DNA from: a bacterium
Lineage (GTDB): Bacteria; UBA9089; UBA9088; JAGUXG01
NCBI GenBank assembly: GCA_043798435.1
Contig: JAZDOR010000128.1
Span: forward strand, 1 to 45,419
Length of the DNA stretch: 45,419 nucleotides
Reading direction: 5' to 3'
Positions 11,947 to 45,419 of the stretch are shown in pieces. The position numbers were made by a program, and so were the translations under genes. Position 1 is the first letter of the stretch, and each line of letters starts with the position of its first letter. The notes below the pieces were generated by a model. It was not told the origin of the DNA. It saw nothing but the letters and a program-made list of their open reading frames with translations, and did not search any database.

Positions 11947-11975
11947 AATATACCGAGAATAAATCAGGTTTCCAA
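11947..11975 (-). promoter_or_regulatory. Putative sigma70 promoter of the MeTr-like gene, formed by a solo class-2 terminus
   Basis: On the minus strand: TTGGAA (11970-11975), 17 nt (ACCTGATTTATTCTCGG), TATATT (11947-11952), 45 nt upstream of the ATG at 11901. Confidence 0.55.
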
Positions 11976-11997
11976 AAAAAATTGATTACCTTTTATC

Positions 11998-12158
11998 GTA
12001 ACCGTTCAGGCTATACATCAAGAGTGTAAGAAGGGGGATAAGGAGATAATGGGGATATGGAGATATTCATTTTTAATTCTTAATTTTTAATTCAAAATTT
12101 TATCCCCTTATCTCCATAATCTCTATATCTCCTTTTTTTACACTACCGCAGCGATTAC
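11998..12158 (+). repeat. Class-1 word-hairpin element with ggagataagg/ccttatctcc core
   Basis: Termini gtaaccgttcaggctatacatcaagagtgtaag ... ttacactaccgcagcgattac. Inverted paralog at 36196-36340, related copy at 40875-41029. Confidence 0.85.
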
Positions 12159-12175
12159 CTTTTATCTCTATCCCC

Positions 12176-14506: not shown

Positions 14507-14734
14507 TATGATAATAAGTGTATGGAAAAAAAAGAAGCAAGTCAAGAAGAATGTAAACTGCGATTCAGAATATAAAGATGATAACGACGGCTGTTTAGAA
14601 TGGGAAATAAGTAATATCAACGCTCCAAACCTGATTCGACATAAACCGTCTGTCCTTTAAAACAAAAACGAGTCAAACCTTGCCGTTGCTGGGATGGTTC
14701 ATTTTATCGTTTTTCCCTATGATTTCTTTTGGAA

Positions 14735-15045
14735 ATTGGAAATTAGAAATTGGGAAGAAAAGATTCTGCTTCTGTGCTATACCTAAAAGAAATTGGTTTA
14801 CAAAAAAGTAACTACTCAGGTTCAAGGATTAAAAAGTTCACGGTTCAAGGTTCACGGTTAATCCTCTTATTCTCTAACCTTGAACTTTGAACCTCAGAAC
14901 TATAAACGAATCAGGTTCAAGGTTCACGGTTAATCCTCTTATTCTCTAACCTTGAACTTTGAACCTCAGAACCATAAACGAACACAATTTTTGCAAACCT
15001 GATTTATTTAGGTATAATTTCAAATTTCTAATTTCAACTTCATCT
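14735..15045. repeat. Composite class-2 element: nested inverted repeats with a 72-bp internal tandem duplication
   Basis: Outer gaaattagaaatt / aatttctaatttc. Termini tatacctaaaagaaattggtttacaaaaaa (14778) and tttttgcaaacctgatttatttaggtata (to 15016). The ggttcaagg...ccttgaac hairpin is present twice (14842-14910, 14914-14982). Confidence 0.85.
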
Positions 15046-15113
15046 TTTAACCGCAAGATTTCAAACAAAAGTGAACCGTCCTAATCTTCTTCTATTTAGC
15101 GTCTTTTCTTCAC

Positions 15114-18401: not shown

Positions 18402-18565
18402 TATACCGAAAAGAAATTGGTTTACCAAAAAAAAGTAACTACTCAGGTTCAAGGGGCTAAAGGGTTCAAGGTTCACGGTTAATCCTCTTATTCTTTAACC
18501 TTGAACTGTGACCTCAGAACCATAAACGAACACAATTTTTGTAAACCTGATTTATTCTCGGTGTA
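18402..18565. repeat. Class-2 word-hairpin element (ggttcaagg core) with both termini
   Basis: tataccgaaaagaaattggtttaccaaaaaaaa ... ggttcaaggttcacggttaatcctcttattctttaaccttgaac ... tttttgtaaacctgatttattctcggtgta. On the minus strand the left terminus reads TTGGTA-17-TATAAC, 22 nt upstream of the ATG at 18377. Confidence 0.85.
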
Positions 18566-18767: not shown

Positions 18768-18897
18768 CCTCGTCTAATTGATATATCTTTTTAGTCTATA
18801 GTCTGATGTCTAAGTCTCGTGTCTATTTCGTTAGTCTGAGTCTGGAGTCTTAGGCTACTTAAATTTTTGCTAAACCATGTTTTCATTAGGTATGCTT
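18768..18897. repeat. Partial class-2 element (agac/gtct core, right half only)
   Basis: About 105 bp nearly identical to 33803-33898 (atatatct.tagtctatagtctgatgtctaagtctcgtgtctatt.cgttagtctgagtctg.agtcttaggctacttaaatttttgctaaa). A related stretch occurs at 32424-32492. Confidence 0.8.
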
Positions 18898-22002: not shown

Positions 22003-22108
22003 GTAACTACTTTAGGTTTAGGAGTTAAAGGGTTCAAGGTTCACGGTTAATCTCCTTACTCTCTAACCTTGAACCGTGAATCTCGGAACTGTGAACCTGA
22101 ATAGTTAC
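22003..22108. repeat. Word-hairpin core (ggttcaagg/ccttgaacc) flanked by gtaactac...atagttac
   Basis: gtaactactttaggtttaggagttaaagggttcaaggttcacggttaatctccttactctctaaccttgaaccgtgaatctcggaactgtgaacctgaatagttac. Related to the cores at 14842 and 18450. Confidence 0.8.
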
Positions 22109-29474: not shown

Positions 29475-29620
29475 TATGCCCAATGAAAATTGGTTTGCAA
29501 AAATTCAGACAGACATCAGACATCAGACTAAAAATCTTCCCTTTAAGTCTGAAGTCTAATGTTCTTGAGTCTATAGTCTTTTTTAACCATCTTTTTGCAA
29601 ACCTGATTTGTTTGGGTATA
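29475..29620. repeat. Class-2 word-hairpin element (cagac/gtctg core) with both termini
   Basis: tatgcccaatgaaaattggtttgcaaaaa ... cagacagacatcagacatcagac ... aagtctgaagtct ... ctttttgcaaacctgatttgtttgggtata. Confidence 0.8.
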
Positions 29621-30088: not shown

Positions 30089-30177
30089 CAGATATTATAC
30101 TCAACTAACTTAGGTTTCCAAATTTTCTTAAGTTTTTCCATCTTTCCTTCATTGCACCTGAACAGTTATAAATAGAC

Positions 30178-32337: not shown

Positions 32338-32492
32338 TATACCGAGAATAAATCAGGTTTACAAAAAGATGGTAAAAAAGACCATGGACTTCAGACCATA
32401 GACACGAGACTCAGACTTTTTAATTAATATATCTTTTTAGTCTATAGTCTGATGTCTAAGTCTCGTGTCTATTTCGTTAGTCTGATGTCTAC
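32338..32492. repeat. Class-2 element with left terminus only (agac/gtct core)
   Basis: tataccgagaataaatcaggtttacaaaaa ... agacacgagactcagac ... gtctaagtctcgtgtct. On the minus strand the terminus reads TTGTAA-17-TATAGT, facing nusA. Confidence 0.8.
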
Positions 32493-33041: not shown

Positions 33042-33590
33042 CTACTGGCTTTCTCTGTGGATACATATCCAACTTTCCACAAGGTAGCAGGATAGTAATC
33101 CTATAATTCTTAAAGTTTCTAAATCCCCTTGCTGCTGATTCATCTGTTGAATTTTGCTGTTTATCCCCTCGGCTACAGCATTTGTTATTCTATGTTTAAG
33201 ATAGGTTAAAATATTATCAAGATGTCTTTTTATCATTATTTGCTATAGGTTTGAGTCGGGAATGTGTTGCCCACCAGTACCACTTCTTGAAGAAGTTCCT
33301 TGCAGCCTTTTCATATGTATATTTCCATAATCGCAGAAATATTTTCTTTATTGTCCATGCACGACCTACTTTTAGCTCTTTATTCTTTAGCTCCCCAAAT
33401 GCCTTTTTCTGCTCTTCTGTCCAGTTGCAAGGGTTGGTTAGCCATAGATACCTTGTGCCTTTAAGGATGTCTACTCCTTCTTTTCTTAAGCTTCTATTTT
33501 CTTCCTTATCTTACCTTGTCTATAGTTATTGCCACTTTTTCCTTAGTCATTTGAACTGGAAATCTAAGTAGTGGTTGTTCAACCAGGAAA
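33042..33590 (-). pseudogene. Degraded C-terminal part of an ISL3-family transposase
   Basis: Minus-strand frames give FHVQMTKEKVAITIDKVR*, LKGTRYLWLTNPCNWTEEQKKAFGELK...RAWTIKKIFLRLWKY...FFKKWYWWATHSRLKPIA, then (frameshift) MIKRHLDNILTYLKHRITNAVAEGINSKIQ, then (frameshift) LDMYPQ. There are several stops and frameshifts, and no N-terminal half. Confidence 0.75.
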
Positions 33591-33677: not shown

Positions 33678-33905
33678 TATACCGAGAATAAATCAGGTTT
33701 CCAAAAAAGGTGGTTGAAAAAGACTATAGACTCAAGAGCATTAGACTCAAGACTATTTTATTACAAAGACTCAAGAACATTAGACGCAAGACTAAGACCT
33801 TTTAATTGATATATCTTAGTCTATAGTCTGATGTCTAAGTCTCGTGTCTATTTTGTTAGTCTGAGTCTGTAGTCTTAGGCTACTTAAATTTTTGCTAAAT
33901 CATGT
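33678..33905. repeat. Full class-2 element (agac/gtct core) whose right terminus overlaps the tyrA stop
   Basis: tataccgagaataaatcaggtttccaaaaaa ... agactcaag words ... gtctaagtctcgtgtct ... cttaggctacttaaatttttgctaaatcatgttttcatt. The last 6 nt are the final tyrA codon plus the stop (...MKT*). Confidence 0.8.
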
Positions 33906-34724
33906 TTTCATTGGACATATCAAACCCTTTGCATCTTTTTGTATCTCTTGAAATTTCTCCAAAATATCACCCCTCTCAATTGCTTCCTGCCACTCAGAGA
34001 TTATATCCTTCATCTTAGATAACCCCGACAAAATATTGCTTTTGTTGGTCAAGCATATTTCATTCCAGAGAGAAGGAGGGGATAAGCTCAACCTGGCCAT
34101 ATCAGTAAATCCAGTAGAAACAAGGGCTTCTGCACCTCCTCTCTTTACCAAATCCACCAGAGAAAAAGAGAGGATATGCGGAATATGAGAGGATAGGCTG
34201 ACTATCCTGTCGTGTTCTTCTGCATCCATCTCTATCACTTTTGCCCCAATCTTTTCCCAGAGATGGCAAACCTTCTCTTTTGCAGATGTGTCTGTATCCT
34301 TGGTTGGCGTGACCACAACTAAGGAGTTAGAAAAGAGTGAGGCAGAGGCTGATTCTGAACCTTGTCTGTGTGAACCAGCCATTGGGTGACTGCCAATAAA
34401 TTTAGGAAGGATGGGGGATAGTTCACTCACTATTCTCTCTTTTGTTGAGCCGGCATCAGTGACTATGCTCTCTTTGGCAAAATGAGAGAGTTTCTTTCCA
34501 ATCTCTATGATGGCTAAAGGCGGTGTGGCAAGAAATATGAGGTCTGCATACTCTGCCCTGTTCAGGTCATCTGTTGCTTCGTCTATACAGCCAAGTTCTT
34601 CGGCTTTTTTGAGGTTCTCCCTGCTCCTTCCAATCCCAATAACCTTGTTTGCCAATCCCTTTGCTTTTATCGCCAGACCAATAGAACCACCAATCAAACC
34701 GACACCTACTATAGCTATTTTCAT
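33900..34724 (-). CDS. tyrA: Prephenate dehydrogenase
   Basis: MKIAIVGVGLIGGSIGLAIK Rossmann fold, GSHPMAG, HD...S.SH.PH. Confidence 0.88.
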   Translation of the reverse strand: MKIAIVGVGLIGGSIGLAIKAKGLANKVIGIGRSRENLKKAEELGCIDEATDDLNRAEYADLIFLATPPLAIIEIGKKLSHFAKESIVTDAGSTKERIVSELSPILPKFIGSHPMAGSHRQGSESASASLFSNSLVVVTPTKDTDTSAKEKVCHLWEKIGAKVIEMDAEEHDRIVSLSSHIPHILSFSLVDLVKRGGAEALVSTGFTDMARLSLSPPSLWNEICLTNKSNILSGLSKMKDIISEWQEAIERGDILEKFQEIQKDAKGLICPMKT

Positions 34725-43574: not shown

Positions 43575-45275
43575 CTAATCTATACTGCCTACTGTTCCAC
43601 TGCCTCCTGCCTCCGAACCTTTTATCCCATAGAGAACAATCATCCTTTCTGCAATCTCACGAAATACGGGTGCGGCAATTGTTCCTCCATATCTTACCCC
43701 TGCTTGTGGCTCATCTATCATCACCAGTATAGCTACCTTTGGATCTTCTGCTGGAAACCACCCGACAAAGGAGGCAACAACCTTATCCTTGTCATATCCG
43801 TGAGGGGAAGCCTTCTCTGCTGTTCCTGTCTTTCCACAAATCTTGTATCCCGCAATTTTAGCTGAAACACCTGTTCCTTTCTCAACAACATCAATCATTA
43901 TATCAGATACCTGCTTTGCCACCTCGCAAGAAATAACCCTTCTCTTCACAGAGGGATAATACTCCTTCACTATGTAATCCTTTCCCTCTGAGACCCGAGA
44001 GACCAGGACAGGTTTGACAAGTAAGCCTTGATTGGCAATAGTGCTGATAGCCATCAATACCTGAAGGGGTGTAACGCCAATCCCATAGCCAAAGGAGAGA
44101 TTAGACTTTGCAAGCTCAGAGGGTTTGTTTCTTGGCAAAATTCCTTTCTCTTCCTCAGCAAGACCAATTCCTACTTTATCTCCAAATCCAAACTGCTTGA
44201 GATAATCAACTAAAATTTTGCCGTCTAATCTCTGGACAGCCTGAGTCATGCCCACATTACAAGAGTTTATCAAGACATCCCTGAAGGTCTGGTCTCCGTG
44301 TTTATGGACGCAGGAGATTTTTCTCCCTCCTACCTCCATACTTCCTGGACAGAAGAATTTATCACCCTCCTTCACCACCCCTTCCTGTAATAATATGGCA
44401 CAGACAACAGCCTTGAGAAGTGAGCCTGGTTCTGTAATCCAAGAGATGGCTCTATTTTTTAAGCTATCTTTTTCAACCTTTTTCCACTCAGACGGGTTCC
44501 AGTCAGAATAGACATTTGGATCAAAAGATGGCCAGCTACAACTGGCAAGAATCTCACCAGTCCCAACTGCCATCACAATTACAACCCCTCCCTTTGCCTG
44601 ATATTTCAAGCAGGTTTCTTTCAACCTCTTATAGGCAAGGTATTGGATGTTTGAAGAGATAGAAAGAGAAAGGTTATATCCACAAAGCTTCTCTGGAAAT
44701 CTCTCTTTGGTATAGGTAATAGAGCCTACGCCATCTTTTTCTATCACTATCTTCTGGCTTCTGCCTGCAAGATACTTATTCCATGCCCCTTCAATCCCAC
44801 AAAGCCCTTGAATCTTCTCGGCATCATCCTCAAATTTTACAAAACCGAGAAAGCTGCCTATGGGTTCACCTAAGGGGTAAAACCTCTTACATTCAGGAAG
44901 AAAGTTGATATTAGGAATCTTTTCTCTTTCTATCTTTTCTGCCAGACTCCTTGGAATTCTCCGAACAATCCAACCCACCTTTTTGGGGGAGGCTCCACAC
45001 AGCCTGGCTATTTTAGATAAATCTTTGCTTTGCATTCTTTTGGGAGAATAAATAGACCAGGTCTCATTACTCATAGCTAAAATTTCATTATCCCTATCAA
45101 ATATTGTGCCGCGTGGCATGACATAAGTTCTATCTCTTTTCTGTATCCTGTTTGCCTTCTTGACAAACTCACCCCTTTTTATTACCTGAATATCAAATAA
45201 ACGGACAACAACCACAAGAAAGACAAGGACTGTTATCGCCCAAACAATGATTATTCTTTTTTGATATGGTCTCAT
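43575..45275 (-). CDS. Class B penicillin-binding protein (FtsI/PBP2-type peptidoglycan D,D-transpeptidase)
   Basis: N-terminal TM anchor, PBP dimer domain (RGTIFDRDNEILAMS). Transpeptidase motifs SLLK (in EPGSLLKA), SCN, KTGTA. Confidence 0.88.
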   Translation of the reverse strand: MRPYQKRIIIVWAITVLVFLVVVVRLFDIQVIKRGEFVKKANRIQKRDRTYVMPRGTIFDRDNEILAMSNETWSIYSPKRMQSKDLSKIARLCGASPKKVGWIVRRIPRSLAEKIEREKIPNINFLPECKRFYPLGEPIGSFLGFVKFEDDAEKIQGLCGIEGAWNKYLAGRSQKIVIEKDGVGSITYTKERFPEKLCGYNLSLSISSNIQYLAYKRLKETCLKYQAKGGVVIVMAVGTGEILASCSWPSFDPNVYSDWNPSEWKKVEKDSLKNRAISWITEPGSLLKAVVCAILLQEGVVKEGDKFFCPGSMEVGGRKISCVHKHGDQTFRDVLINSCNVGMTQAVQRLDGKILVDYLKQFGFGDKVGIGLAEEEKGILPRNKPSELAKSNLSFGYGIGVTPLQVLMAISTIANQGLLVKPVLVSRVSEGKDYIVKEYYPSVKRRVISCEVAKQVSDIMIDVVEKGTGVSAKIAGYKICGKTGTAEKASPHGYDKDKVVASFVGWFPAEDPKVAILVMIDEPQAGVRYGGTIAAPVFREIAERMIVLYGIKGSEAGGSGTVGSID

Positions 45276-45277
45276 GA

Positions 45278-45419
45278 TAGTTTAGAGTGTATAGTTTAGA
45301 GTGTATAGTTTAGAGTGTATAGTTTAGAGTGTATAGTTTAGAGTGTATAGTTTAGAGTGTATAGTTTAGAGTGTATAGTTTAGAGTGTATAGTTTAGAGT
45401 GTATAGTTTAGAGTGTATA
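45278..45419. repeat. 14-bp tandem array (tagtttagagtgta), about 10 copies, running off the window edge
   Basis: Perfect 14-nt periodicity read directly from 45278 to the end of the window. Begins 2 nt upstream of the PBP start codon. Confidence 0.95.

Follow-up and report, generated by a model that had tools for sequence, protein, structure and literature searches.

The closest described counterparts of the repeats analysed here are the Correia elements (CREE/NEMIS) of Neisseria and the MITEs of the IS630 family. In the Correia 'Black promoter', a -35 hexamer and a partial -10 hexamer lie inside the element end, and the flanking sequence completes the -10 at some sites (PMC2649163; see PMC9330008). 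IS1, IS2, IS10, IS30, IS256, IS257, ISAba1 and other insertion sequences carry an outward -35-like hexamer near their end, and their insertion can create a fusion promoter (PMC9330008; PMC9208149). Promoter activity was experimentally shown for CREE and has been demonstrated for the IS-borne promoters, usually via selected activation of resistance genes, whereas the elements described below have a promoter-like sequence only and, compared with the IS-borne promoters, show no orientation bias. With the IS630 family, they share a transposase of ~340 aa with HTH and DDE_3 domains, a parent IS of ~1.2 kb with TIRs, the duplication of a TA target and short TIR-sharing derivatives amplified to many copies. 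Nezha of the Nostocales is an example of such an IS630-family MITE derivative.

The window, i.e. the whole analysed stretch of 45,419 nucleotides, is contig C222 of a 2.23-Mb draft genome (233 contigs, 40.8% GC) of an uncultured candidate phylum. Within the window, the 23-mer TATACCGAGAATAAATCAGGTTT occurs exactly at 11949, 32338 and 33678 on the plus strand and with one mismatch at 18543-18565 on the minus strand; no match was found in 100 dinucleotide-preserving shuffles. Diverged copies start at 14778, 18402 and 29475 (plus strand), and the tips of mirror copies lie at 15016 and 29620. In total, the window holds four near-exact and six diverged copies of the motif, which is far above chance. 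The first-pass annotation had placed the motif at these same starts, with mirror copies at 15016, 18565 and 29620, and all of them were recovered; two degenerate mirror ends that it listed at 18897 and 33905 also exist, but with their tips at 18894 and 33919. The elements and termini of the window are compiled in Table 1.

Table 1. Repeat elements, solo termini and associated features in the window
Feature	Position	Strand	Description
Solo A-type terminus TATACCGAGAATAAATCAGGTTTCCAAAAA	11949..11978	+	Outward reading TTGGAA-17-TATATT, 9/12 matches
Host repeat of another family, ends GGGAyGGTTCA...TGAACCGTCC	14690..15081	.	MITE 14778-15016 inserted in it
Complete 239-bp MITE	14778..15016	.	Left TIR 14778-14807 C-type, right TIR 14988-15016 B-type
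Complete 164-bp MITE	18402..18565	.	Left TIR C-type, right TIR A-type
Right-half fragment of ~240-bp MITE type	18791..18894	.	Degenerate F-type TIR 18864-18894
Complete 146-bp MITE	29475..29620	.	Left TIR like right end (IRR) of parent IS; right TIR B-type
Degenerate B-like terminus	30096..30124	+	6 mismatches
Left part of ~240-bp MITE, A-type TIR, truncated near 32490	32338..32490	+	Tip 128 nt from nusA start
ISL3 transposase remnant, two frames, profile positions 99-225 of 240	33042..33510	-	Target of 33678 terminus
Complete 242-bp MITE	33678..33919	.	Left TIR A-type; right TIR degenerate F-type (33889-33919)

The genes that the first-pass annotation had named beside these elements (pterin-binding/MeTr-like, HEAT, glmS, PG-binding, PEP-mobile-domain, nusA and the ISL3 remnant) were identified as such. 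Of the distances it gave, 45 nt between the -10 hexamer and the MeTr-like gene and 22 nt for the PG-binding gene agree with direct reading, while the HEAT gene lies at 157 nt, taking its longest ORF, and not at ~270 nt. From the outward end of the 11949 terminus it is 47 nt to the pterin-binding gene start, and the inner side of this terminus adjoins a different, 'class-1' repeat; the left tip at 18402 precedes the ATG of the PG-binding gene by 22 nt, the hexamer at 29475 only ~9-14 nt from an ATG, and the left end at 33678 abuts the truncated ISL3 pseudogene. No Rfam family matches any of the elements, and the same search of the window returned only four tRNAs.

Two side observations concern the flanks of these elements. 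The 'class-1' repeat beside the 11949 terminus is bracketed by the direct repeat GATTACCTTTTATC (11984-11997, 12153-12166), which may be a target duplication or part of the ends of the class-1 element. At the other end of the region, the gene at 33900-34724 (minus strand) is prephenate dehydrogenase (tyrA), and the right TIR at 33889-33919 contains its stop codon and its last ~5 codons; therefore, insertion of the MITE replaced the C-terminal tail of tyrA.

Genome-wide, an exhaustive Hamming scan allowing up to 6 mismatches to six variant consensus sequences detected 173 termini, to which 18 of a seventh, degenerate type are added (~190 in all); a control scan of the genome with the reversed consensus sequences detected none. 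Similarity among the copies ends exactly at TATACC, and the outer flanks are unrelated between copies. Thirty-one inverted pairs of termini form complete elements of ~130-670 bp, mostly 160-161 bp, without coding capacity. In the typical complete element, the left end is C-type (TATACCGAAAAGAAATTGGTTTAC) and the right end B-type (TATACCCAAACAAATCAGGTTTGC). Among the 22 copies of the 160-bp type, the mean pairwise identity is 89%, with conservation spread evenly along the element. At least four unrelated interiors occur with the same ends. The complete 239-bp MITE of the window represents the 160-bp type extended by an internal 72-bp tandem duplication (14842-14910, 14914-14982), and folding of its single strand gave one long hairpin (z = -8.9).

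The interiors consist of hairpins of heptamer repeats of the GGTTCAA, AGACTNN and GAATTCA types (14842-14982, 18463-18531). One interior module (22031-22099) also occurs without TIRs, and tandem arrays of heptamers are likewise found alone, e.g. at 45249-45419. A further observation relates to the assembly itself: many contigs (C45, C50, C51, C178, C228, C103, C89, C18 and others, at positions ~110-140) stop ~138 nt inside a MITE copy. The repeats therefore break the assembly, which fits a k-mer-limited assembly; the fragmentation into 233 contigs is largely caused by the MITE repeats, and the copy numbers given here are underestimates.

Two nested insertions allowed us to compare filled with empty sites. 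On contig C145, a 160-bp MITE lies inside an IS derivative, and the same site is empty on C94 and C34 (TTATTC-TA-TCCCTT); the filled site reads TTATTC-TA-[TACC...GGGTA]-(T)A-TCCCTT, the right-hand TA copy having lost one nucleotide. In the window, the host repeat at 14690-15081 reads ...CTGTGC-TA-[TACC...GGTA]-TA-ATTTCAAATTTC..., with the TA duplicate on both flanks of the MITE, whereas more than 20 other copies of this repeat genome-wide are uninterrupted (...CTGCTTCTGTGC-TA-ATTTCAAATTTC...). Since both insertions have uninterrupted paralogues, the elements were inserted at TA and duplicated this TA. The evidence for mobility thus comes from paralogous filled and empty sites within one genome. 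When two genomes of the same genus were searched with the HEAT-glmS region, no orthologous empty site was found, as the loci lack synteny there: HEAT and glmS are located on different contigs or beside different neighbours.

The host repeat belongs to a second abundant family of ~150-bp hairpin repeats with more than 20 copies (e.g. on C8, C90, C103 and C178), the arms of which are built from GAAATTA/GAAATTG heptamers. One such repeat, whose loop holds the IS630-type MITE, makes up the entire HEAT-glmS intergenic region.

The same ends bound a transposase gene. A profile search returned fragments of Pfam DDE_3 above the cut-off in a broken gene on contig C34. This copy (C34:14498-15658) opens with TATACCCAAAAGGAGTTAGTTTGCAAAAAA as its left end (IRL) and carries a degraded transposase with 17 stops and several frameshifts; read through, the protein of ~340 aa shows HTH_29, HTH_33 and DDE_3 (E=1e-28), which is the IS630-family architecture. 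C34 breaks off within the final bases of the IS, and identical sequence runs on in C54 and C55 to the right end (IRR), TATACCCAATAAAAATTGGTTTGCGAAAAAA, at C54:26825 and C55:6288, 35 nt past the transposase stop. Joining these overlapping contig ends gives an IS length of ~1.19 kb. The DDE transposase with N-terminal HTH domains, its enclosure by TIRs in a single-gene element of ~1.1-1.2 kb and the insertion at TA with a 2-bp duplication all agree with membership of the IS630 family. The same right end is also present beside a homologous gene in one genome of the same genus, and a related end was found in a genome of the same order. Internally deleted derivatives of the IS are located on C94 and C145.

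No intact transposase copy is assembled in the draft genome, and the one copy that is nearly complete is a pseudogene; both the present mobility of the elements and the assignment of an enzyme to them are therefore deduced rather than observed. The A-type TIR differs from the right end of the IS at ~8 of 30 positions, and its true partner may be a second, unassembled IS630 relative. Separately, a 21-bp palindrome, ACGGACTAATATATTAGTCCG, occurs twice in the degraded IS630 copy (C34:14691 and 15062) and once, exactly at the deletion junction, in the derivatives (C94:2587 and C145:19207). This arrangement suggests that recombination between the two ACGGACTAATATATTAGTCCG copies produced the short derivatives.

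Taken together, the elements are short, non-coding and multi-copy, they share their TIRs with an IS, and they duplicate their target. The first-pass suggestion that the motif marks the terminus of a MITE is borne out by the 31 inverted pairs, the TA duplication and the IS with the same ends. We consider it highly probable that the 30-bp motif is the TIR of MITEs mobilised in trans by an IS630-family (Tc1/mariner-like, DDE) transposase, and that its likeness to a promoter is incidental.

The distribution among related genomes shows the pattern expected of lineage-specific MITE bursts. A pattern combining the two main variants gave 68 matches in this genome, 69 in one congener and 6 in another, and zero or one in each of 58 further genomes. 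The congener with 69 matches has its own dominant variant, CAAGT.

Two other explanations do without an IS630-type MITE. The motif could be the operator of a dedicated host transcription factor, i.e. a regulon signal and not mobile DNA, since a protein might bind a block of 20-30 bp whose conservation extends past the hexamers, and the G-variants contain a palindrome, TTTGCAAA, as read directly from the sequence. We regard this as very improbable: the motif is invariably found at the termini of inverted-repeat elements, which show a TA duplication and empty-site paralogues, it lies downstream of genes as often as upstream, a transposase gene is flanked by it, many contigs break off at it, and its copy number differs more than tenfold between congeners. 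The 'dedicated DNA-binding factor' that the first-pass annotation had offered to explain the conserved block would most simply be the IS630-family transposase, whose degraded gene has the same ends.

Less probable still is a classification of the elements as REPIN-like doublets that a RAYT (an IS200/IS605-type Y1 transposase) would mobilise. They do form hairpins, are intergenic and measure ~160 bp, and the genome encodes two Y1_Tnp proteins; however, neither of the Y1_Tnp genes (C122:46947, C28:6531) has a terminus near it. Moreover, unlike REPINs, the elements duplicate a TA target, and the same ends are found on an IS630-family gene. Membership in the REPIN/RAYT group was rejected on the distance of the Y1_Tnp genes from any terminus and on the TA duplication.

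Within the reading as IS630-type MITEs, the first-pass annotation had gone one step further and described the termini as outward sigma-70 promoters with an invariant spacer, delivered to genes as in the Correia elements. As a rival explanation, the ends could act as functional promoters of the 'Black promoter' type that drive genes on the left and antisense RNAs on the right (e.g. opposite the 3' end of glmS), with the copies kept for this reason. The anatomy is indeed there: on the complement, the A-type copies literally read TTG(G/T)AA-17 nt-TATAnn, and almost all termini of the genome show a -35, a gap of 16-18 nt and a -10. In terms of anatomy only, this matches the 'Black promoter' (TTGSAA, 16-18 nt, TATA plus two flanking nucleotides). 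The first hexamer is TTGCAA, TTGGAA or TTGTAA in 105 of 143 termini, and 49 of the 143, about a third, pass a lenient sigma-70 filter. The same anatomy is experimentally functional in the CREE of Neisseria (PMC2649163), and a preference for TA/TATA targets favours fusion promoters (PMC9330008). The candidate promoters upstream of the tRNA genes in the window look canonical (TTGACA-18-TAAACT), and therefore the organism probably recognises standard hexamers. The right end of the 239-bp MITE, which is directed at the 3' end of glmS, reads TTGCAA-16-TATAAT (14991-15018) and, with 10/12 matches, equals these candidate tRNA promoters in consensus match.

The spacer, in contrast, is not invariant. 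It measures 16, 17 or 18 nt and falls into at least four sequence variants; the 17-nt spacer of the A-type is present in only 4/10 termini of the window, and spacers of 16 nt and differing sequence occur at 14778, 18402, 29475, 15016 and 29620. When the best-fitting hexamer distance is taken for each terminus across the genome, 16 nt prevails (109 termini), ahead of 17 nt (21) and 18 nt (13).

The argument that the left termini point at gene starts holds within the window, yet it loses its weight as evidence once gene order is considered. All genes between 11 and 36 kb of the window lie on the minus strand, and it is for this reason that the left ends face gene starts there; the target of the 33678 terminus, moreover, is the interior of the ISL3 pseudogene. 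The gene calls underlying the genome-wide comparison (1,794 genes, 81% coding) come from a home-made caller based on ORFs and codon usage that suffices for assigning strands but not for placing starts exactly. By these calls, both genes run in the same direction in 1,334 of 1,561 adjacent pairs (85%), an unusually long same-strand order for a bacterium, and the ends of repeats in the window therefore look as if they were aimed at gene starts.

Genome-wide, the ends are oriented at random relative to genes, an outcome that the first-pass annotation, in proposing this check, had itself named as refuting its promoter reading. We counted 73 outward ends at a gene start against 85 at a gene end (binomial p=0.38), and the informative class, made up of solo termini between co-directional genes, was split 21 to 18. 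This result was stable at three gene-call stringencies and three distance limits. For variant A, 8 ends face a gene start and 17 a gene end. Start-facing copies do not have the better -10 either: T at its last position, which depends on the flank and occurs in ~37-40% of termini, was found in 27/73 start-facing and 36/85 end-facing termini, TATAAT in 6 and 12 of them, respectively, and the lenient filter was passed by 21/61 start-facing versus 25/70 end-facing termini. The frequency of 9/12 consensus matches is at background for a genome of 41% GC (23 versus 14.5±4 in shuffles; 13 versus 14±4).

Finally, variation within the end is greatest in the '-35'. Mismatches per site in the '-35' and in the 'spacer' amount to 0.126 and 0.071 for variant B, 0.052 and 0.024 for variant C, and 0.113 and 0.040 for variant A, and conservation is the same in start-facing and end-facing copies. 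A '-35' that is least conserved within the variants is the opposite of what a selected promoter would show, and it resembles a recently amplified transposase-binding end. Together with implausible targets such as the interior of the ISL3 pseudogene (33678) or an ATG ~9-14 nt from the hexamer (29475), and with a window pattern that is explained by one-strand gene order, these data make it unlikely that the termini were delivered and kept as promoters. Of the proposed parallel to the Correia elements, the anatomy stands and the recruitment for genes does not. Nothing in the genome points to selection or orientation of the ends for driving genes; their random orientation speaks against having been selected as promoters, but does not mean that they are transcriptionally silent.

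The reading as MITEs of an IS630-family transposase would account for these features as follows. The elements insert at TA and duplicate it, and given this duplication, the terminal TATA is composed of two nucleotides of the element and the 2-nt target duplicate. The whole end of ~30 bp would serve as the recognition site of the transposase, and we infer that the enzyme binds the TIR there. Conservation of the 'spacer' would then follow from this recognition site and the young age of the copies, with no need for a promoter function. The likeness to sigma-70 promoters (TTGSAA, 16-18 nt, TATAnn) would be a by-product of an AT-rich TIR and a TA target, leaving the ends with a presumably weak and incidental promoter potential. 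At some sites, the two flanking bases complete a fair -10 box, and such copies could fire, like the Correia 'Black promoters'. That some copies initiate transcription is nevertheless doubtful. By the same measure, we think it improbable that a subset with a flank-completed TATAAT or TATAnT (e.g. 14991-15018 opposite glmS) does so and that the MITE burst might in this way have seeded dozens of sense and antisense starts.

Compared with CREE/NEMIS, the MITEs described here are likewise non-coding elements of ~100-240 bp with TIRs of ~26-30 bp that start with TATA, both groups insert at TA and fold into a long hairpin, and both carry an outward -35 and a partial -10 inside the end, with the -10 completed by the flank at some sites. 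In contrast, their sequences are unrelated, the host belongs to a different phylum, and a candidate parent IS, of the IS630 family, is identified for the MITEs here. The CREE core motifs CCGGTACGG and TCAGGACAA were not found in the consensus of the 160-bp MITE, and an identity with the Correia element was rejected, as the CCGGTACGG/TCAGGACAA ends are lacking and the host is not Neisseria. The Correia TIR reads TATAG.GGATTAA...AAATCAGGAC; its likeness to the TIR found here (TATACC...AAATCAGG) is offset by ~4 nt and was treated as coincidental.

Relative to known IS630 MITEs, the TIR sequence and the hairpin interiors made of heptamer repeats are new, several interior types occur per end, the host is a member of an uncultured candidate phylum, and the assembled parent copy is degraded. 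The elements represent a previously undescribed, IS630-derived MITE family with ~190 termini in a 2.2-Mb draft genome and a variant in a congener. That they read like promoters is a known and largely automatic consequence of an AT-rich TIR with TA as its insertion target, here without a genomic signature of function. This calls for caution, as the ends of AT-rich, TA-inserting transposons are automatically read as -35/-10, and one-strand gene order mimics an aim at genes. The defined ends and the TA target can be used for masking and annotating related genomes, and the MITE family explains why these MAGs are fragmented ~138 nt inside repeats. Should some copies turn out to be active, they would constitute a second, independent case of Correia-like promoter-bearing MITEs, in a distant uncultured phylum and a small genome of the Desantisbacteria type, although the phenomenon as such is already known.

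Beyond the genus, a 19-mer of the TIR was found in 12 DNA stretches of public genomes (596 Gb), compared with ~4 matches expected by chance according to our own calculation. Eight of them belong to the MAG 'bacterium Yes70-25', a third congener, and the others are single matches, including one in a MAG titled Candidatus Desantisbacteria, which the genome index assigns to the phylum of the genome analysed here. The exact 19-mer is present in MAGs assigned to other phyla, namely in an Omnitrophota contig (JAGVOB010000121.1, 22-40) and in an Ignavibacteriaceae MAG; the Omnitrophota copy continues as a recognisable D-type end at the edge of the contig. Horizontal spread of the IS family could explain this, and so could mis-binning of a contig.
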